A DNA stretch of 52,342 nt, filler included, from Basidiobolus ranarum (taxonomy: Eukaryota): the NCBI GenBank assembly GCA_040143965.1. It is 2 parts of 2 records of this genome, joined end to end, with 100 filler letters (N's around TTAATTAATTAA, not from the genome) between each part and the next. Parts side by side here need not be neighbours in the genome. Positions count along the whole stretch, not along the records: positions 26,233 to 52,342 come from JASJQH010000135.1; 1 more part is not named here. The stretch is one strand, 5' to 3'. Below, piece by piece: positions 6,001-49,654 of this stretch; positions within the stretch are counted from its first letter, which is position 1; every line of letters starts with the position of its first letter. A model generated the notes under the pieces. That model had not been told where the DNA came from. It saw nothing but the letters and a program-made list of their open reading frames with translations, and searched no databases. The translations under genes and the position numbers were made by a program.

Positions 6001-6348
6001 TGTTAAAGTATATTGGGAGCCTGTTGGAAGTGGTTTGGGTAACCCGAGGAGTTGGTGGTTTTGACTCATTGGTTTATTGCGTATTCAGTGACATTTATAG
6101 TTTTGTCAAGATGTAAGCAAAAAAACATGTAGAATGTGTCAAGAAAGATCCCAGGAACATGTGTGCAAAGTTTGGGGCTTCTAGCCTAAGTTTGAAAAAT
6201 CTATATATCTGGGAACTTCTAAGTGGGTAAAAATATTCCAACTAAGTTCCAATTGAGAATAAAGGGTGATATCTTAGTTCAATATAGGATAACTAAATGC
6301 TAAGCTGTAGATGACTATGTTGGTGTTTAGGTAATGCAAATTTCAACA
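6001..6348 (+). mobile_element. Dispersed repeat family X, copy 2; possible solo-LTR or non-autonomous element
   Basis: 6001-6238 is the inverted copy of 1-238. It begins TGTTAAAG and a candidate end TTTCAACA lies at 6341-6348 (TG...CA, short imperfect terminal IR). Internal TATATA at ~6202 and AATAAA at ~6258. No target-site duplication is evident, so the class is uncertain. Confidence 0.6.
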
Positions 6349-26132: not shown

Positions 26133-26232
26133 NNNNNNNNNNNNNNNNNNNNNNNNNNNNNNNNNNNNNNNNNNNNTTAATTAATTAANNNNNNNNNNNN
26201 NNNNNNNNNNNNNNNNNNNNNNNNNNNNNNNN
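26133..26232. other. Assembly spacer (N44 + TTAATTAATTAA + N44)
   Basis: N runs flank a 12-mer that gives stop codons in all six frames; this is an artificial contig linker. Confidence 0.97.
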
Positions 26233-26394
26233 TCTTGACAAAACTATAAATTTCAACTGAATACTCAATAAATCAATAAGTGAAAACCACCAATTCCTCT
26301 AATTCTCCAAACCACTTCCAACAGGCTCCCAAATACTTTAACAATTTCAACACTCTCCCTCAACTAAATATAAACTAATCCTAAGGAAGGTCCA
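26233..26394. repeat. Repeat family X copy 3 (26233-26343, same orientation as copy 1) followed by flank R (26344-26394, direct copy of 6340-6394)
   Basis: TCTTGACAAAACTATAAA...CAGGCTCCCAAATACTTTAACA is nearly identical to 128-238. It is followed by ATTTCAACACT..CCTCAACTAAATA..TAAACTAATC.TAAGGAAGGTC, as at 6340-6394. Confidence 0.9.
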
Positions 26395-29923: not shown

Positions 29924-30754
29924 CTAGACTGACTTATTAAGTTTAGCAAGAACAAGATCGGCAGCTTTGCGACCAGATACCATCATGGCTCCGAATGTAG
30001 GTCCCATACGAGCAGTCCCACTAGCTTCGGCAACTTCCATACCAGTGATGATCATACCTGGAACGATCTCACGAGTAAGAGCGACAATAGCGTCTTCCGA
30101 AGCATTCATGTCCAAAGCACGCATACCAGGCATCTTGTCAAGAAGTCCAACTTCGACGAGTCTGCGAACCCCAGTCGCCCCAAATGGACCATCATGACCG
30201 CATGAGGATACTACAATCTTGGACTCCATGACCTGAGGGTCCATGCAACTTTGAGTACCATGAGCTTTGGTAACTAATGCCCAGTTGGTGACAACACCTG
30301 AGACGACACCATCACGAATGATGAAGTCTTCGACGGAAGTAGCATTGAAGAGTTTGACTCCGTTGGCAATAACTTTGGAGATCAAAGTAGACGTGAAAAG
30401 AGCAGCATGGGAGACAACGACATAGTTCTCCTTTTCGTCATAGGCAATACCAAGCTCATCTAGGAACTCGTGGGCCGGCTTGCGAACTACCATTGGGGAG
30501 AAGAGTTGTCCACCAACCCAGCCACCACCTCCTGGGGCTACGGAGGCCTCAATGATGGCAACTTTGATATTTTTATGCTTGCTAAGTTCGTAAGCGCATG
30601 ATAAGCCTGATGGACCAGCACCAACAATGACAACATCAGCGTCAGCATGGTCAATCAAATCCTGCATATAGCGGGTAGTCATCTCGCGAGAGACATCTGA
30701 CTCCTTTACAGGAGCGAACTTGAAATCACCTTGGACAAGAACGTTATGAACCAT
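29924..30754 (-). CDS. THI4: Thiamine thiazole synthase (Cys-donor type), intronless
   Basis: [37 protein letters not shown] (sulfur-donor Cys), GHDGPFGA and RMGPTFGAM. Confidence 0.97.
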
Positions 30755-31264
30755 ATTTTCTTCACTTTCTCTATGTTGGAAATGATAATGGTAGTCTCAT
30801 AACTGCCCTCTTTTTATACTTTCTATCTTGAACCACATTATTTGATATCTTCTACTTAGATGTATATACCGGCTTAAGCTTGTTTACCTATGAGTCAATC
30901 ACCAATATGAGATCTTTGAATGAACTGATAATCAGCAACGTAACCTATTCTCTTGCTGGTCAACTCCCCATTGTAGGAAAGTTAGGGATGTGACTAGGAT
31001 ATACAGCATCTGACTCATATGTAACTTGCTGCTATAGACAAATCACTTCATTTTTTAGACAGAATTAAAGTACACGAATGTAGGCATCTCTTAGCATAAA
31101 AAATAGGAACATTCGTTGGGTCAGGGTTCAGGATAAAATTCTATTGAACTCTAATACTTGATTTATTATCTCATACGTTATGAGGTAGCTATTGAATTTT
31201 TCACGGTATTCAATACTTTATGTGCATATAAAGTGTTGAGATTTTGAAATTTGGATTGAATAAG

Positions 31265-31463
31265 AAAAGAAATGTATCGCGCGATAGTCAGATTTCCTTC
31301 AATAGGACGGTTAAGTCCTCAATTCAGGAGTCCCGGCTTATCCGCACGACGATATATAGGCTATTAATCAGGACAACGCAGAGAGGGGGTTACATGGTGG
31401 AGAACTCTGACATGTAACCGAGTTATTACCACATACGAGTAATAACGAGTCTACTAACGCTGC
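31265..31463 (-). ncRNA. Candidate structured ncRNA (~190 nt), family unrecognised
   Basis: A terminal stem closes four internal hairpins; TATA at about -30, A-box-like TAGTAGACTCG at +8 and TTTCTTTT at the 3' end (details in findings). Confidence 0.55.
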
Positions 31464-31842
31464 TTGGTTAAATCCAATGAGAACTGTTCGGGTATATAAA
31501 GCAATTGCAGAAGTTATGTAAAGTTATGGGTTATCATTTATTACTTTTCTGGAAACATTATTTATTTTCCTCTGTGATTTTTTTCTTGAATTTCTAAAGA
31601 GAAATTCAGTGATTATTTCTCCAAAAAATCATCCTACTAGTGAGCAAATCCAATCTCCGATAATTAATTGAATTCTTATTTTCATACGAATACTATTCAC
31701 TGTTAAACAGTCCAAAATTTTCCATCAACAGAGTATTTTTTTTTTTCGCGATAATGATAGAACTGGTAGAACGAGTTTGAGGTAGTAGGGACTAACTAAA
31801 GGGATTCCTTGTCAACTGATTCAAATAGAAAATATTTTAACT

Positions 31843-33503
31843 ATGAAATTCTACACTGGCGATGAGACGGGTTTACTAAAAGGTTAGAAATATATTATCC
31901 TTTCTAAAAATTCATATGGTTTACTTTACTTACTTTCACACTTAAACTACGTAGTTGTCACTCCTGCTTTACCTAAATCCGAGAAAAAACTCAAGAAAGC
32001 TAAGATTGTTGACGAGGATGAAGACGAAGAAGAGAAACCAAAAACTGATCGTGAACCAAAAGCCTCTGTTATAACTTATGGAAAAGTAGATCGTAGCGAA
32101 GGGATTCAACAGTTAATTATGGCTAAAGTTGGTGAAGAGAATCTCAAAATGGTAAGGGGGTTATTTTCTTTACTACAAATAGAACTGTCTTATTCGGTAC
32201 ATACTTTTAAATCCATTTTTCACTAAACTTCTGGGTCTATATCAGATTGTTGCTGCCCGTAAAAGTGGAAAAATTCAATATATTCTTCCTTCAGACGGTA
32301 GTGTTCGTAAGGAATTTGTCGAAGAGTTCCCTAGCCTTACAAAGAAAGATCCTGAGTGTACTTTTGTCGGCTTACACTCTACAGCTGAGTACGTTCTTTT
32401 TATGTATCTAACAGTTAAAGTATCATCTCTTAAACTATTACTTCTGTAGTACGGTTATCACTTGTACTAGCTATGGTAGTATTAGATACCGCTCAATTTT
32501 GAAGGAAACTGTAAGTCAGCATTGACTCTAAATACCAGGCATACACACGCTGATAAATGATTTTATTTAGGACCCTGTTGTCGCTACCCTCGATGCTGGT
32601 AAAGACATTTGCTGTATGAGAGTTCATCCCCAGCAGAGCAATATCTTAGCTACTGGTGGCAAAGAGCGCGACTTGACTATCTGGGATATCAATCAATCCA
32701 CCGGCGATTCCAAGGCCAAGGTCGAGCCAATCTTCAAAGCCAAAAATGTAAGTTATTTTTATCGGGTATGTAGAATATTCTCAAGGCAAATATCTAAATA
32801 GCTACGCGGTTTTCAGGTGAAGAATGACTTTTTAGATCTACGAGTCCCAGTTTGGATTACCGATATGCAATTCCTTAACGAAGATGTACACAAGGTTGTT
32901 GTTGGAACCAAGCATCACCAAATTCGTCTTTACGATACCAAGACTGCCCGTCGCCCGGTAGTTAATGTGGAAATCGGGGAGCATCCTATTGTCTCTCTCG
33001 CCCTCGCCCCTAATCAAACGTAGGTTATGCCTATTTAGATGTTGTTTGATTCTTTACTGACCTTTGCTTGTAGTGAAATCATCTGCTCTGATAGCATTGG
33101 CAACTTGTCATCGGTTGATATCCGTACTGGTAAGCCTAAGTACCTTGAGTTGTTTCAATTGATGATATGAGCTAACTCGTTCTATAAAGGCAAACTATTG
33201 CATACATACAAAGGAATTGTTGGTTCAGTCCAGCATATGGCTATTACCTCGACAGTTACTCCACAAGTGTGTGCAAGTGTGTCATTGGATCGATTCCTAC
33301 GTATCCATGAAACCTCTGGCAATCGCAAGCTTCTCCACAAGATTTACCTCAAACAAAAGCTCACTCGTGTGGTTATTGATGAGGAGGAAGATGTTGAGGT
33401 TGAGAGTTCAGAGGATGAGGACGAGCAACTATGGAAGAACATGCGCACAGTCAGCGAAGCAAAAAGCATCAAGAAGCGCAAGCAAAAGACCTCTTCTCAA
33501 TGA
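31843..33503 (+). CDS. NSA1: Ribosome biogenesis WD40 protein Nsa1/WDR74, multi-exon
   Basis: MKFYTGDETGLLK, LATGGKERDL, FKAKN|VKNDFLDLRVPVWITD, IRLYDTKTARRPV and SVSLDRFLRIH...KIYLKQKL. Confidence 0.93.
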
Positions 33504-35802: not shown

Positions 35803-36814
35803 TAAATAGTTCAACCACCCGAGCGATGGCCACTTTCATCAGTAGCTTCGTTCGTCCTTCTACACATACTTTTGTTTTTTGTGTTAATTGTTTTTTCATT
35901 CTCTTTCTCGTAACTGTGGTATTATTCTTTCGTTATTTCAACAATTTGTTGACCGTTCTACACAGAATACGGGTGGTGTCAGCCTTCATACTTGGTGGTC
36001 TATAAATCTTTCACGAAAACGAACTTTTCCCTATTATTTCCTTCTGGAACCAATGTTCCCTTCCTGTATTCAGTGTAAATTTGAGTAGGGGATGTGTCAA
36101 CCCCTTTTATGAACGATCGATATCGTTGAGTGAATTTAGAATTTCTACTGAAATAAATCTAAAAACACAGGGAGGGAAGGGGGCTCTTTCTTACGAAGGC
36201 ACTCTCCAACTGTGGTTTGTAAGTTAGCTATATATCCATCTACGTACATTTCCTAAAATGACTATGGAGTACTCCACACACTCATCACTGAGCAACTTTC
36301 CTCGATTGGAACTCAGGATAGGGGTTAATACACCTGTTAATATACTTGGTTTCAAGCTCCATCCAGCAGGTTGAAAAAAGCGGTTGGGATGGGGACATTA
36401 GAGGTAAGGACCGCAAGTATAATGTATGAAATGTAATAAGCAATATATAAAATGTACCGTGAACCCTAACCCGGAATCTCCCACATTTCACCATCTTCCC
36501 GATATGGAACTTACATAATTCGATGATCATACTCCAATTTATCCGCAAGTGGATCAGGCACTATTGTAAGATGGATTCAATGTTCCAGCACGAAGCAATG
36601 GTTATCTGTTGCCTTGCAGAGGTTTATTAGCATCTTGATGGATACCGGTTGTAGATTGGGGGTGGAATAAGCTGACCACAGAGCGCTCAAGATAGAGGAT
36701 CTGTGCACATAGTTCATACGTAAGCATGGTCATGGCTTTGATTGGCCACTAGCACCAGCCGATGCTTAATTTTCAATACGTATCCTGCAATCCTGATTTT
36801 ACTGACTTGACTCG

Positions 36815-41462: not shown

Positions 41463-44400
41463 ATGGCAGACCAAGACGATTTCGTTTCGCCATTGGAGCT
41501 AACCTGGCCTGATTTCATAAAAAATAAACTTCTAACGGGGATAACTTCATCGAGTGTTAATTCTCGTCTTGAACTAGTAGAGCAAGGGCTTCTCCCAAAA
41601 ATCAAACAAAAAGGTACAGTTTTGATTAGCAATCTTCTCTCGATCACCAAAGGGGATATCGTTAGACAACAACATCTAACGAAAAGGAGGCATCCCTTGT
41701 TACTTTTTTTATTCTCTTACTAAAAGAGCGATTTACCTTGTATTATAGATTTTCCCGAGCAGGCTCTCCCCTCACTCCTTCGTCTGATATTTCTCACATA
41801 TCCACGTTACCAAGACCATGCATCTCGTCGTGCTATTCTCAAAGTTTATACAGAATTATTCAAATGGAATTCTGAAGCATTGCTTAAAGCAGCTAACATT
41901 GCTTTTATGCGTGAGGTCGATGCTGTCAATAAGAGATCAGGAGACTTTGGGTTGGTGTTTTTCTCTAGGCCTGACTTAATCCATACTCTATAATCTAACC
42001 CTACTAATATGCAAATTCTTTCGTTAGAACTTTCACTACCTCAGAAACTTCCCGCTTTATTATCCTGACCTGGGTGAACCACTTCATTTCTCTAATCGCA
42101 AGTTCTTTTGATTCAGATGTTGATTCTCTTAAAAAATCCACTTACTGGGCAGCATTCATCAAATATCAAGCAATTTTATATGACGGTCTTCTTGCCAGTA
42201 AGAGAAAAGGAATCAAGAAGGGAGTTACTGCTGATGTTCGCAGAGTTATCAGAAAATATCCTAATTTTATTGAGGCTTACCTTTCTCAGGCTGTAAGCAC
42301 CTCTCTAACACCTTCTTGCAGAGTGATTGCTCTAGTAGGAACTATCGTTGATGTTTCATTGAGATTGGCTAGCGTAAAGAGAGATGTAGTTGAGAATCAA
42401 AAGGAGGCTATCATCAAGCTCTATCTTACTGGCATCTTATCTTCTAAGCAAGTCATCCCAGCGTTCGTTTCAGAATCTCTTCGGGATTTCTTCTTCAACT
42501 TCATCGATGAAGAGGAATTCAAAAAGCAACTAGTTCCTACCATGGAAAGAATGCTTCTTAGATCACCTGAGGTTGCCTTAAGTGCTATTTCCCATGTGGT
42601 TGATTCAGTTAATTTTGATCTTGGCGAACTCTTCTCTGGTACTTTTGCGAAGCCTATATTAAGCTCCTTCCAATCTAGTAATATCAAAGTACGTAACGAT
42701 GCTATCAGTCTTTTCAAACAGCTATCCCTACGAAGCCAAAGCGAGAGTAATCTCTCTTCTGTAGCACAAGAGATGATTAAGATGATTACTAGCGGAAAGG
42801 TTTCTAGTGCCGACCAACGTACTACATTTTATGAATGTTTAAGTGGAATGATTACTTCCCCTATTGTATCTATCGAAATTTTGGATAAATTGGGTCCACA
42901 GGTTGCCAAGGAATCCAACGAAAATGTAGCGACCATTTTGATTGGTTCCTTGGGCAAGCAACTCGAGTCGATTGTTTCTCTTTCGAGTGATCAAATCACT
43001 CAACAAATCAAAGATAGCGTCGATAATTTCATGAAATTGCTTCTTGCCGGGCTTAAGAGCACCAAGCCAAACATCAAGAAGAGTTGGACTCTAGTTTGTG
43101 GTAGTGCTGTATGGAAGAGCAAAGATTTGGAACAGAATATTCTAAGCTCCTACGCTCCCGCCTTCATGAAGTTACTGTTGGATACCACCAACAAAATTCA
43201 TCAAAACCCCATTCAGTATCCTAGTGGACCCCTTGAGGGTTACGTTGGCATTTCTGTTGCTGAGAATATCAAAAAGTGGAATATCAGCGATTTATCTGAA
43301 GACAGCATATCAAATTACCTTGCTGTAACACCCAAACCATCATTCTTCTTTATGGATAGAATCTACAACAAGCTGACTACCGAAGAGGAATGTTTATGGC
43401 TTATCAGAGCAGCTGAAAGCGTGATACTTGAAGAAAAAGCCTTGACTGAAGAAGTGAAGGATGCCCTCGCTTACATTTTTATTTACGGAATCTCTAATTT
43501 CCCTAACTATCAATCCAGAAATGAGGCCTACTGCGCTTTACAAAGATTGTGTGTCATCAACCCTGTTAAGATTGGTGCCATTATGCGCCATGGCCTTGAG
43601 AAGTGGTTGTTAGATCTTGAAAACCAAGCTCACCAACCCACAAGAAAGTCCTCCTATCGCCTTTCTCGTGTTCTCACCGCAATTACCAGCTTCAAATCAG
43701 ATCTTGAAGAAGTTATTGTTGAGACTGCACTTCTAGATTTGGCTCTGATCTCTCATCATCCCCACGTTGTTTCTCCTTCGGACAAGTATTCCTGGTTGAC
43801 ACTCGCTTATAGAGCTAACATAAACCCAGGCAAATTGGTCGCCGATAGTTTCGACACCTTGGAGAAGATATTCATTGATAGAACCATTGTTGATTGCTCC
43901 TCCAAATTATTCTATAAGGCAGCTATCTCCCTCGCCTCCACACTTACCTTAGTTAATCCTGAAAGATCAATCCCCGAATTTTTGAAGATTTGCGAAGCGG
44001 ATCTAAAGGCAGAGAGTATGGATGGAATTAACCAAGAGAAAGTGGAAATCTGGAAGACACCCGAAGGTGTTTTATGCATCGATGTCCTTAAACGTAGTAA
44101 GTACGAAGAAAACAAAAATCGTAAGAACTACGCTACCGACAAGTGGGAAGCAGATCTACGTAAAGAGATTGCTAAGAAGAGAGGCGAAGACAAGCAAGTT
44201 AAGCTAACCAAAGAAGAACAGGCAACAGTTGATGCCCAACTAGCCAAGGAATCTAAGATTAGAAAACAAGTTCAAAATGTGTATGTCAAACTTGTCAGAG
44301 GGTTGGACATTATCAATGCCATGGTCGCTGGAAACAAAGAGGCACTTGGCGAGCACCTTGTCGAAGTGGTTCGACTCCTACTCAGTGGTGTTATCCACAA

Positions 44401-47400
44401 AGGAGGTCTACTCGTTGAGAATAAGGCAGTTGAAACCTATATGAATGTTGGCAAATGTACTTCTGATAGTCTTCAAGGTATCCGTCAGATGCTAGGATTA
44501 GCTACTCTTAGAGCAATGAAGGTTCAAGAAGTCTCTGAAGAATGGCATGCCGAGCCTTTGTATGATTTAGTCATTCGTGTACTATACCGTTTACGATATG
44601 CTACTGAGAAAGCTCCTCTCTCTCCTTCATCTTTCTCTTATTGTTTCCCATTGGTTCACCAAATTATCCGTGAAAATGGTGTTGGCTCACCTGCTGAATC
44701 CAGAATCCTTCACCCCGATGAAGAAAGTCAATTTGATAAGACTCCTGAGCAAGTTGTTATTGCCATCGATATTATCTCTTTCCACTGTAAATTTAGTGAA
44801 TCACTATTAGTTCCTCGCAAGGAGATGATCGAATCTTTATTGCTAGTCATTCGTTCTTACAACAAATTGAACAGCGTGGCCAAGAAATCTTTGGCCGTAC
44901 TTTGCGAATCCATGGGTGATACCGCAACTTTACCCGAAATGTTAACCCTCTTAAAAGGACTTCTCTCCGAAAGTCTCTTGGTTAGAACTGCTTGCCTTGA
45001 AGCTTTGGATTTCTTGGATTTGACTGATATTGACTTCTCTTGTGAATTATGGATTGCTTGTCACGAAGACAATGAAGCCAACGCCAATCTTGCTGCCACC
45101 TTGTGGGATGAAAATAGTATGGAAGTCCCTGAGAATTATCTATCTTATATTTTACCCCTTGTGATTCATAAAAACAAGAATGTAAGAGTTAGCGCGGCAA
45201 AGGCTTTAGCAAGCGCCATCCAGTTCCACCCTCAAAGCATTTCGGATTCTTTGAAGAGTATTTATGACAAGTATAAGGAACTTGCTACACCCATCGTCCC
45301 CGAGTATGATGAATTCGGAATGGTTATTCATTCCTCCTTAGAGAAGGAAGACCCTTGGGCTAGCCGAGTTGGACTTGCATCTGCCTTGGTTGCTTGTGCT
45401 CCTCTGATGAATCCAGAAGATTTGAATCCATTTTTCCACTTCTTGATTCAAGAGGAAGCACTTGGCGATCGTCACGAAGATGTTCGCCAACGGATGCTAG
45501 ACGCTGGCTTGGCTGTTATTTCTGCTCATGGACAAGAACATGTAGAGACATTGATGCCAGTGTTTGAATTATATCTTGGTTCTCCTGCCCCTCCTAACGA
45601 TACACATGATCGTATTCGTGAATCCGTCGTTATTCTATTTGGTTCATTGGCTGGTCATCTCAATGCCTCTAACCCCAAAATCCCTACTGCTGTTGAAAGA
45701 CTCATTGAAACTCTTAGAACTCCTTCAGAGCCTGTTCAAATCGCTGTTAGTCAATGCTTGCCTCCTCTTATCAAGGCAATGAAAAATAATGCACCTAAAC
45801 TTATTGACCAGCTTCTGAACGACTTATTGAATGCTGAGAAGTATGCTGAAAGACGTGGTGCTGCCTATGGCTTAGCGGGTGCCGTTAAGGGATGTGGTAT
45901 CGCATCTATCAAGACCTGTGATATTATGACCAAGCTCAAAAATGCTATTGCCGAAAAGAAGAATTACAAACATCGTCAAGGTGCTCTTTTCGCTTTTGAA
46001 ACATTATCACTTAACCTTGGTCGCTTCTTTGAACCCTACATCATTCAAATTATTCCTCTACTTCTCGCATGCTTCAGTGATAACACTGCTGATGTGCGTG
46101 AAGCTACTACCGATGCTGCTCGTGTCATTATGAGCAAGATTAGTGGACATTGTGTTAAACTTGTTCTTCCCTCTCTTTTAAGAGCTTTGGAAGATAAGCA
46201 ATGGCGTACTAAGCAAGGTTCCGTTCAATTGCTCGGTTCAATGGCCTTCTGCGCGCCTAAGCAATTATCCATCAGCTTGCCTACTATTATCCCGTGCTTA
46301 ATTGAAGTACTTGCTGATTCTCATCAAAATGTTCAAAAGTCTGCTAATGAGGCACTTTTGACCTTTGGTGAAGTTATTAGTAACCCTGAAATTCAGGCTT
46401 TAGTACCTATTATCATGGATTCCCTCTGCGACCCCAATAATAAGACCGAAGCTGGTTTAACTGCTCTTCTTGGAACTGCCTTTGTTCATTACATTGACGC
46501 TCCTTCATTGGCTTTGGTTATGCCCATCTTACAGAGAGGTTTGAAAGAGAGAAGTACTGAAGTTAAAAAGAAGGGTGCCCGAATTGTTGGTAATATGTGC
46601 TCCCTCACTGACAAGAAAGATCTTGTTCCATATCTACCCTCTCTTCTTCCTAGCTTGAGAGAGGTTCTTGCTGATCCAGTACCTGATGCTCGTGCAACCG
46701 CTGCCAAGGCTCTTGGTACTATGGTGGAGAAACTCGGTGAGGAGAACTTCCCTGGACTTGTCAATGGACTCATCCATACTCTAAAGATAGACTCCAGTGG
46801 AGTTGATAGAGAGGGAGCTGCCCAAGGTCTTTCCGAAATCTTGGCAGGTTTGGGTATCGATCGTATGGAGGTTATGTTACCCGAAATCATCGAATACACA
46901 TCAAGTCCCAAGTCTTATGTGCGCGAAGGTTTCGTTACTTTGCTCATTTATTTGCCTGCTACTTTCGGAGAGCAGTTCACACCTTATCTCGGTCGTACTA
47001 TTCCTCCTATCCTCAAGGGATTGGCTGATGACTCTGAGTATGTCAGAGATGCTTCGTTGCGTGCTGGTCAAATCATTGTTACCAACTATGCTACTAAGGC
47101 TGTCGATTTGTTGTTACCTGAACTCGAGAAGGGACTATTCGACGAGAACTGGCGTATTAGACAGAGTTCCGTTCAACTTATTGGTGAGCTTCTCTACAAG
47201 ATTACTGGTATCTCTGCCAATACCGATGAAGAGACTGGTGAGGACAACGAAGACGTGGCTGTTAATGAATCCACACGTAAGGTCCTTCTCGAGACCCTCG
47301 GTAAAGATAGACGTGATCGTGTTCTTGCTTCTCTATTCATTGTCAGAAATGATGTATCTGGTACCGTTCGTCAAGCTACTGTTTCAGTTTGGAAGTCTAT

Positions 47401-49654
47401 TGTCAGCAACACTCCTCGTACACTTAAGGAAATTCTTTATGTTGTCATGGACATTATCATCAAAAATCTTGCCAGTTCTGAGTTCGATAAACGCCAGGTT
47501 GCAGCTCGTACATTAGGTGACATGGTTCGTAAACTTGGAGAAAGTGTTCTTTCCGAAATTATTCCCATTTTGGAGAAGGGACTTGATGCTGAAGAAAGTG
47601 GAACAAGACAAGGTGTTTGCATCGGTCTTGGTGAGATTATGGCCACCGCTGGAAAGGTACACATTGTTGATTACATTGAAGCCCTTATTCCCTCCGTTCG
47701 TAAAGCACTTCTGGATCCATCTACTGAAGTACGTGAGGCAGCTGCTCAGGCTTTCGATAACCTTCACCAACATGTTGGCTCCAGAGCTATCGATGATATC
47801 TTACCACATCTTCTAAATGAACTCAAGAGTGGTAATGACACCAACGCTTTGGAGGCTCTTAAGGAAATCATGTCTGTACGTGCCAACGTTGTCTTCCCTG
47901 TGCTCATTCCAACATTGATTACTGTGCCCATTTCTGCCTTTAACGCTCGTGCCTTAGGCTCTCTTATCTCTGTCTCTGGCTCTGCACTCAGCAAACGATT
48001 CAGTCAATTGTTAACTGCGTTGATGGATTCATTGTCCCAAGCAGATCAGGAAGCGGTTGTTGAATGTCGCGAAACCATCAAGGTTCTTATTTCTTCCGTT
48101 GATGACATTGAAAGTCTTCACAATTTGATGATAATGCTATTCGAGATCGTTAAAAGTAACGATGCCTCTCAACGTGTCAGTGCTTGTGAAATTCTTGCAG
48201 TCTTCTGTGCTACCAATAAGGTGGATATATACCGTTATGTCCACGATTGGTTCCGTACCTTGATTGCATTATTGAACGATGAGCAAGTTATGCAAGCTGC
48301 TTGGAAGGCTCTTGACAGTATCACCAAATCCATGAAGAAAGAGGATCTTGACCAGTATGTTGTTCCTGTTCGCCGTGCTCTTAAAGGAACTACTGACCGT
48401 TTGTACAATGGTCAAACACTTCCCGGCTTTTGCTTGACTAAGGGTATTGGTCCATTACTTCCTATCTTCTTACAAGGTTTGATGTATGGTAGTTCCGATA
48501 CCCGTGAACAGTCAGCTCTGGGTGTTGGGGATTTAGTCCAATGGACCTCGTCTGATGCGCTTAAGCCTTTTGTCACACAAATTACTGGACCTCTTATTCG
48601 TATCATTGGTGATCGCTTCCCTCCTCAAGTCAAGGCTGCCATCTTGCAGACTTTGGGAGACTTGCTCAACAAGGTTTCCATTATGCTCAAACCTTTCTTA
48701 CCTCAGCTTCAAAGAACATTTATCAAGTGTCTCACTGACCCTACACCTGTTGTGCGTGAGCGCGCTGCCGTTGCTCTGGGTGTTTTGATTACCTTACAAT
48801 CCCGTGTTGATCCACTTGTTGTGGAATTGAATGCTGGTATAAAGGCTAATGAAGGAGGCATCCGTGAAACCATGTTGAAGGCACTTGAAAAAGTGATCTT
48901 CCATGCCGCTGGTAACCTTTCTGATGCTAGCAAGCAAATTGTCGAAAAAACCGCATTAGAGGGTTTGTCCGATCCTAGCGAATCAGTTCGCGAAACCTCC
49001 TCTAAATGCCTTGGTAGTTTGTGTAAGACTTTACCTAGTGACCAAGCCCGCCCTATCATATCCAACATTTTGAATGAAGCAAAGGGAGGTGCTATGGGAC
49101 CAGTTTTGGGCATTAAAGCTATTCTTGAAGACAGTCCTGTTGCGTTTGAGAACCTAGGCTTGACCGAAGATTTGGTTGATGTTATCGTTCAAAGCATTGA
49201 AAATTCGCATATGACTGAAGTTGGTATAATGGCTGCAGATGCTATTCTAACTGGAGATGCCTGTGGCTCTGAGGAATGTAAGAGAAAAATCGTGGATGCC
49301 CTCGTATCGGTTCTCGGTGGAAAGTCAACAGAATGCAAGCGACTTACTTTACGCACCATTAAGAATGTTGCCAAACGAAACAATAAGGTTATCAAACCTT
49401 ACATCAAGCAACTTGTTCCATCTATTATGACTTGTGTAAAGGAACGCAGTATCCCTGTTAAACTTGCTGGTGAACGTGCCATGTTGTACCTCTTTGAATT
49501 ACACAAAAGTGATACACTTATTCAAAAGTACATTGAGGCTCAGGAACCAGGACTAAAGAAGATTGTAAGTGATTATTATCGCCGTGTACTTGTAAAACTA
49601 GCAGAAACTGTTTCCCAACCAGAATATGTTAGTGATGAAGAGGATCAATATTAA
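41463..49654 (+). CDS. GCN1: Translational activator Gcn1 (HEAT repeats); two short 5' exons and a ~7.6-kb terminal exon
   Basis: ERRGAAYGLAG, FEPYIIQIIPLLL, GHCVKLVLPSLL, QWRTKQGSVQLLGSMAFCAPKQLS, FVHYIDAPSLAL and QITGPLIRIIGDRF. Confidence 0.97.

Follow-up and report, generated by a model that had tools for sequence, protein, structure and literature searches.

In fungi, THI4 and NMT1 genes carry TPP riboswitches in 5'-UTR introns, and the TPP riboswitch family is included in Rfam. Besides these riboswitches, the described systems that come closest to the locus studied here are yeast Pol III genes of the SNR6/U6 type, box H/ACA snoRNAs, in which a hairpin, an ANANNA box (the H box), a second hairpin and an ACA follow one another, and the MITEs and foldback elements. 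To our knowledge, hardly any small RNAs have been annotated in Basidiobolus and other early-diverging fungi, and Rfam detects lineage-specific snoRNAs poorly in these fungi. A literature search returned nothing relevant on snoRNAs or riboswitches of Basidiobolus. According to a published study, no fungal genus is known to have a denser complement of minor introns than Basidiobolus (PMC10639083). In view of the largely unannotated small RNAs and the dense minor introns, a real new RNA gene would be a useful entry point; the dense minor introns are also the reason why minor snRNA features were looked for specifically in the present analysis.

The locus is a hairpin cluster of 185 bases within a 52,342-nt stretch of Basidiobolus ranarum DNA (the window), where it lies in the 1.09-kb intergenic region between the divergent genes THI4 and NSA1, at distances of ~510-520 nt from the ATG of THI4 and ~380 nt from that of NSA1. 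It had been proposed, on the basis of the sequence, as an undescribed multi-hairpin RNA gene with Pol III-like signals or as a cis-regulatory RNA for THI4. On balance, we lean towards a different reading, namely that the cluster is ordinary promoter-region DNA with short inverted repeats. The genes and elements that define the locus are as follows.

Positions 29924-30754, minus strand: coding sequence of THI4 (thiazole synthase), a single exon of 276 aa that matches Pfam Thi4 (PF01946) with an E-value of 1.6e-103.
Positions 31279-31463, no strand assigned: the GC-richer hairpin cluster, which folds about equally well on both strands.
Positions 31493-31500, plus strand: TATA element, TATATAAA in the plus-strand orientation, which faces NSA1, and TTTATATA in the minus-strand orientation.
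Positions 31843-31881, plus strand: first coding exon of the NSA1/WDR74-like WD40 gene, MKFYTGDETGLLK..., with later exons extending to about 33500.

The genome to which the window belongs is AT-rich and intron-rich. Both of the best database relatives of THI4 (95% and 93% identity) carry the name Thi4 and come from Basidiobolus meristosporus CBS 931.73. NSA1 is a multi-exon gene, and its exon at 32802-33023 matches the PDB chains of human WDR74 and yeast Nsa1 (best E-value 2.2e-16). Reading by eye, we also noted a probable 5'-UTR intron of NSA1 at 31782-31828 on the plus strand (GTAGTA ... ACTAAC ... ATAG), which is preceded by an apparent uORF of 8 codons with an ATG start (31755-31781). On the other side of the intergenic region, THI4 has a proximal TATA (TATAAAAA at 30818-30811) about 60 nt 5' of its ATG. 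Further upstream of THI4 there is a 14-nt inverted repeat (30884-30897 and 31011-31024, 93% complementary) that contains TGACTCA / TGAGTCA, which we take to be a Gcn4/AP-1-type site; the two motifs of this type hint at general amino-acid-control regulation of THI4. A metagenome scan with THI4 yielded 9 loci on short contigs with 61-76% identity, none of them close enough for synteny or with usable flanks. With respect to the window itself, a run of N's at about 26133-26232 (88 N's in the window) is bordered on both sides by TTAATTAATTAA linkers and was read as an assembly gap.

As described in the original prediction, the cluster forms a GC-richer island, with a GC content of 0.43-0.49 compared to about 0.27-0.33 in the flanks. 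The borders of this island are also the borders of the structure, and the ORF-poor parts of the 52-kb window contain 10 separate GC islands of at least 0.44. The helices that had been proposed (i to v) can all be formed. Helix i, in which 31450-31463 pairs with 31279-31292, comprises 12 pairs with two interruptions and has a duplex energy of -10.0 kcal/mol; helix ii has 8 perfect Watson-Crick pairs, to which a ninth, G-U pair is added in the 201-nt fold; the 9 perfect pairs of helix iii are present; and stems iv and v form if folded alone (-7.7 and -10.5 kcal/mol, respectively). Stem v had additionally been likened to a kink-turn. Tandem G.A/A.G pairs do occur there beside UCCU/AGGA, but the 3-nt bulge of a K-turn is absent, and because the rest of the loop is instead nearly symmetric (4 nt versus 3 nt) we do not call this stem a K-turn. 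The overall architecture, a closed multi-branch fold, proved to depend on where the element is cut. At the borders originally chosen it is the minimum free energy (MFE) structure (-52.2 kcal/mol), but with 7-20 nt of flank the MFE structure consists of two independent domains (-56.1 kcal/mol, minus strand), and this two-domain fold is both the MFE and the centroid structure of the 201-nt and 251-nt minus-strand folds. The parts of the cluster and of this predicted fold are listed here.

Positions 31422-31446, no strand assigned: hairpin ii, with 8 Watson-Crick pairs plus one G-U pair on the minus strand and a 7-nt loop.
Positions 31388-31419, no strand assigned: hairpin iii, a perfect 9-bp inverted repeat, GGTTACATG / CATGTAACC, with a 14-nt spacer.
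Positions 31275-31286, no strand assigned: perfect 12-bp DNA palindrome TATCGCGCGATA, a 100% self-hit in blastn, forming part of helix i and of the 3' lower stem.
Positions 31373-31463, minus strand: 5' domain of the two-domain MFE structure, a three-way junction bearing hairpins ii and iii.
Positions 31351-31372, minus strand: unpaired hinge of the same structure, 22 nt, containing no ANANNA.
Positions 31276-31350, minus strand: 3' domain of the same structure, a 75-nt hairpin with a 9-bp lower stem, directly after which comes an ACA at 31275-31273.

Within the 3' domain there is a small internal loop (5' AUAAGC / 3' ACUA), and the upper stems are UCCU/AGGA and AGGAC/GUCCU.

The assignment of the cluster to the minus strand had been based in part on G-U pairs, which were thought to favour that strand. 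This does not hold over the whole element, since the minus strand has an MFE of -56.1 kcal/mol with 9 G-U pairs and the plus strand one of -57.0 kcal/mol with 6. Watson-Crick pairs, which are common to both strands, make up 47 of the 56 pairs in the minus-strand fold, and only 5-7 kcal/mol are lost when the structure of either strand is read on the opposite one. The stability is mostly that of Watson-Crick inverted repeats, as DNA palindromes give, and carries no strand information. A separate near-perfect palindrome, with 15-nt arms and zero spacer, is located at 31208-31239 and has a TATAAA inside it at 31227-31232 on the plus strand. The stretch from 31076 to 31260 folds much better on the plus strand, with an MFE of -44.6 compared to -28.8 kcal/mol on the minus strand.

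We then asked how unusual the cluster is. The comparison with dinucleotide shuffles, which had been suggested as a check together with the original prediction, shows that its folding energy is moderately better than expected. On 201 nt, the z-scores were -2.61 (minus strand, matched by 3 of 200 shuffles) and -2.42 (plus strand, matched by 4 of 200); on 251 nt the minus strand scored -2.37; and on the exact 185 nt the values were -2.77 (minus) and -3.33 (plus). For calibration, 102 random native 185-nt windows were drawn from the same sequence (mean z 0.08, sd 1.00), among which z-scores of -2.0 or lower were reached by 3, of -2.5 or lower by 2, and of -3 or lower by 1. Judged by its shuffle z-score, the cluster is thus better than about 98% of native windows (roughly the top 1-2%). 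Several windows of the same quality are therefore to be expected in 52 kb when both strands are counted, and a selection effect applies to the z-scores, the cluster having been picked after the whole 52-kb sequence had been read. Upon regression of MFE on GC for 2075 windows, the cluster ranked 117 (minus strand) and 123 (plus strand). Perfect hairpins of at least 9 bp, hairpin iii being one of them, number 3 in the window, as compared to 2.85 +/- 1.77 after block shuffling. The hairpins of the cluster are genuine, and moderately unusual. An advantage over shuffles that is moderate and the same on either strand neither confirms nor refutes an undescribed ncRNA.

Other stretches of the window also attracted our attention because of their folding. 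The strongest GC-corrected fold was found at 45301-45585 on the plus strand (MFE -74 per 185 nt, residual z -4.5), within the intron-less 2370-aa GCN1 ORF (42542-49654). The most stably folding of the native windows sampled, at 901-1210 on the plus strand (z -3.9), is located inside a repeat element. An unusually stable fold was, furthermore, observed in an ORF-poor region at 36001-36260 on the plus strand (residual z -3.5), and this region has no Rfam match.

The Pol III layout proposed for the cluster is made up of a TATATA, a fit to the A-box, and an ACA followed by a T tract. All of these elements are present, but as signals they occur at chance level or face the other way. The TATATA precedes the 5' stem by 30 nt (31498-31493, minus strand), and the same hexamer is found 33 times per strand in the window. 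The TATA consensus is TATAWAWR. The plus-strand reading of this element, TATATAAA, fits the consensus better than the minus-strand reading does and points at NSA1, the ATG of which is 343 nt away, and the TATA probably serves this gene. A second TATAAA, the one at 31227-31232 on the plus strand, precedes the other edge of the cluster by 47 nt; with TATAs at both edges, a TATA at about -30 to -50 is available for either strand. The A-box sequence TAGTAGACTCG at 31456-31446 on the minus strand fits TRGYNNANNNG as proposed, but the frequency of this pattern is that expected by chance (93 fits over the whole window, shuffles giving 85.4 +/- 9.4). The absence of a convincing B-box was correctly noted: GWTCRANNC has 35 matches in the window, none of which falls between 28651 and 33288. 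Likewise, the ACA and the subsequent TTTCTTTT are indeed present after the 3' stem; the tract that comes after the ACA is listed here.

Positions 31262-31272, minus strand: T-rich tract TTTCTTTTCTT after the ACA, with a longest T run of four.

The body of the cluster is free of internal TTTT, which is equally the case for 1834 of 3616 GC-matched 185-nt windows (51%). On account of the chance-level A-box, the lack of a B-box within about 2 kb, a terminator consisting only of TTTCTTTT and a TATA directed towards NSA1, the Pol III reading of the cluster is not supported.

To relate the cluster to known RNA families, the whole window was compared with Rfam 15, which produced no matches at gathering score and none at E <= 1. 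In line with the original prediction, which had seen no signature of a known RNA, there was no match to U6, RNase P/MRP, SRP, U3 or TPP, and the same was true in the window for the Y, vault and ribozyme families. The U11, U12, U4atac and U6atac models gave no match either, and no tRNA was found by ARAGORN. Permissive searches (E <= 10) of 31100-31650 and 30600-32000 returned only two chance matches, far below gathering scores: CRISPR-DR51 at 31198-31239 (E 1.7 and 4.3), outside the cluster, and SNORD19B at 31220-31286 on the plus strand (E 8), which overlaps the 3' edge of the cluster by only 8 nt. Several candidates were, in addition, inspected by eye with consensus motifs and rejected. For a minor snRNA, neither a U12 branch-site box nor a U11 5' box was seen at a 5' end; for a C/D box snoRNA or U3 the nearest approach was UGAUUA plus CUGA with no terminal stem; and an Sm site, a hammerhead core, the CR-I of RNase P/MRP and a TPP aptamer were each dismissed. 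A coding exon or pseudogene was discarded as well, the five longest stop-free frames across the cluster having no Pfam matches at E <= 1.

The same searches bear on the idea that the cluster is a cis-regulatory leader RNA of THI4, for instance a thiamine-responsive one, in a long 5' UTR that would begin near 31465. THI4 is indeed on the minus strand, ~510 bp downstream, as had been pointed out, so that the cluster as originally oriented is on the strand of THI4, 510-520 nt upstream of the ATG. However, no TPP or other riboswitch was detected at E <= 10 in 30600-32000, nor at gathering score throughout the window, and the proximal TATAAAAA at 30818-30811 fits a short leader. With no Rfam riboswitch and with a proximal TATA at THI4, this part of the original prediction is without support, and we regard a leader RNA as highly improbable.

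A lineage-specific small ncRNA gene on the minus strand, ~185-200 nt in length and transcribed from the TATA at -30, has more in its favour. Its product would be an atypical H/ACA-like RNA or an orphan. In both the MFE and the centroid structure the minus strand adopts a hairpin-hinge-hairpin-ACA fold, with z-scores of -2.6 to -2.8, and the first upper-stem nucleotide is 14 nt before the ACA, which itself abuts the 9-bp lower stem of the predicted 3' hairpin; moreover, the cluster is a GC island amid AT-rich intergenic DNA and no T4 run interrupts its body. The shape of an H/ACA RNA, that is, two hairpins with a single-stranded hinge and a short 3' tail, is therefore found in a structure predicted from one sequence. 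Apart from this generic two-hairpin shape and the ACA, the cluster has no defining feature of a known RNA class. The hinge lacks ANANNA, and when both strands of 30760-31850 were scanned for the order hairpin-ANANNA-hairpin-ACA, no candidates emerged, such that no canonical H/ACA architecture exists on either strand of this region. There is no pseudouridylation pocket in the 5' domain, the plus strand folds as well as the minus strand, and the permissive Rfam search (E <= 10) assigned the cluster to no family.

The possible guide function was addressed with the rRNAs, six in all, of two eukaryotic rDNA units (L049 and L058), which served as stand-ins for Basidiobolus rRNA. These units were located by means of a universal LSU primer, and SSU, 5.8S and LSU were confirmed by Rfam on both. 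The canonical pocket (5' AUAAGC / 3' ACUA) had no targets in the six stand-in rRNAs at a threshold of 3 or more bp on each side and 8 or more overall. A relaxed pocket position gave 36 matches of at least 9 bp, and among the best 25 of these 36 none recurs in both rDNA units; the relaxed matches behave as chance matches in variable regions. Because the rRNAs are stand-ins and not those of Basidiobolus, the result on rRNA targets is a weak negative. An H/ACA snoRNA proper was rejected, there being no H box and no rRNA target in the two stand-in rDNA units. Taken together, we consider the small ncRNA gene unlikely. We rate as rather unlikely the narrower proposition that a Basidiobolus-specific structured RNA of ~190-230 nt, belonging to no catalogued family, is the product of a separate gene located between THI4 and NSA1, the latter being a ribosome-biogenesis gene. 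Such an RNA, if real, may be derived from an H/ACA RNA that lost its H box and rRNA guide function, or may be an orphan with a long 5'-3' terminal helix. Regarding the stand-ins themselves, L049 and L058 are complete eukaryotic rDNA units on contigs of about 8 kb in records labelled as bacterial MAGs, and the SSU of L049 holds a group I intron. These contigs are eukaryotic contaminants in prokaryote bins.

The strand symmetry of the fold also speaks for a further explanation, according to which 31251-31477 (about 227 bp) would be what is left of a small foldback or MITE-like element, with degenerate terminal inverted repeats and internal palindromes giving rise to strand-symmetric hairpins. 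The outermost repeats of this putative element are the following.

Positions 31251-31260, no strand assigned: left arm of the outer inverted repeat, 10 nt, TTGGATTGAA.
Positions 31468-31477, no strand assigned: right arm of the outer inverted repeat, TTAAATCCAA.

This 10-nt inverted repeat is 90% complementary, is positioned exactly at both edges and closes the whole element in the 251-nt fold, while helix i extends the terminal pairing, and transposon-like repeats exist elsewhere in the window. However, six 10-nt pairs with 90% complementarity are present in the same 1.09 kb, and the terminal motif occurs at chance frequency (16 matches against 15.5 expected, with at most 1 mismatch). Low-stringency blastn did not reveal another copy within the 52-kb window (E-value 0.21 for the best hit other than the element itself), and no target-site duplication was seen by eye beside the arms. 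A transposon relic is accordingly quite improbable in our judgement. As to the repeats elsewhere in the window, related regions were observed at 1-238, 6013-6238 and 26233-26392. They include 150-nt inverted arms at 1-150 and 6089-6238 (91%), and a 111-nt direct copy of the same repeat family at 128-238 and 26233-26343 (95%); the family probably represents a transposon bearing inverted repeats at its termini.

The reading of the cluster as ordinary promoter-region DNA would accommodate these observations as follows. The cluster would be a GC-richer patch in the shared upstream DNA of the divergent genes THI4 and NSA1/WDR74, located just upstream of the probable NSA1 TATA. The repeats in this patch, consisting of the 8-9-bp hairpin arms, the 12-bp palindrome and the 10-nt outer repeat, would have their function, if any, at the level of the DNA duplex, such as binding transcription factors that form dimers, and the multi-hairpin RNA would be a by-product of folding palindrome-rich DNA. 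The repeats exist and are strand-symmetric, and the gene-like signals occur at background frequency or point the other way. From this we infer that a discrete RNA is absent and that the repeats have a promoter role. The points that count against the promoter-DNA reading are the fold in the top ~2%, the coinciding edges of GC content and structure, the ACA after the hairpin, the minus-strand TATA at -30 and the limited sensitivity of Rfam to lineage-specific snoRNAs in early-diverging fungi. In more general terms, the background frequencies of an AT-rich fungal promoter can be enough to produce a persuasive combination of hairpins, TATA, A-box and T-run, and controls for strand symmetry and with native windows are needed before an RNA gene is called.

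When the cluster is compared with the known systems, the similarities are of a general kind in each case. Like the fungal TPP riboswitches of THI4 and NMT1, it precedes, on the same strand, a gene of thiamine biosynthesis, but unlike these it has no TPP match at E <= 10 and is positioned about 450 nt upstream of the TATA of THI4. With the yeast Pol III genes of the SNR6/U6 type it has in common a TATA-like hexamer at -30, a fit to TRGYNNANNNG around +8 and, beyond the 3' stem, a T-rich tract. It differs from them in having no B-box within about 2 kb, an A-box at chance level, a longest T run of 4, and a TATA that fits the consensus better on the opposite strand. The cluster departs from the box H/ACA snoRNAs in that it has no H box, no pocket in its 5' three-way junction, no complementary site in the stand-in rRNAs and no Rfam H/ACA family at E <= 10, whereas its predicted hairpin-hinge-hairpin-tail arrangement, the ACA after a 9-bp lower stem, the 14-nt spacing and the size of about 190 nt, which fits yeast members, are all H/ACA-like. 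Finally, the cluster is single-copy within the window and has no visible target-site duplication, in contrast to MITEs and foldback elements, but it resembles these in its length of ~227 bp, its imperfect terminal inverted repeats, its self-complementary interior and its adoption of the same fold on both strands.
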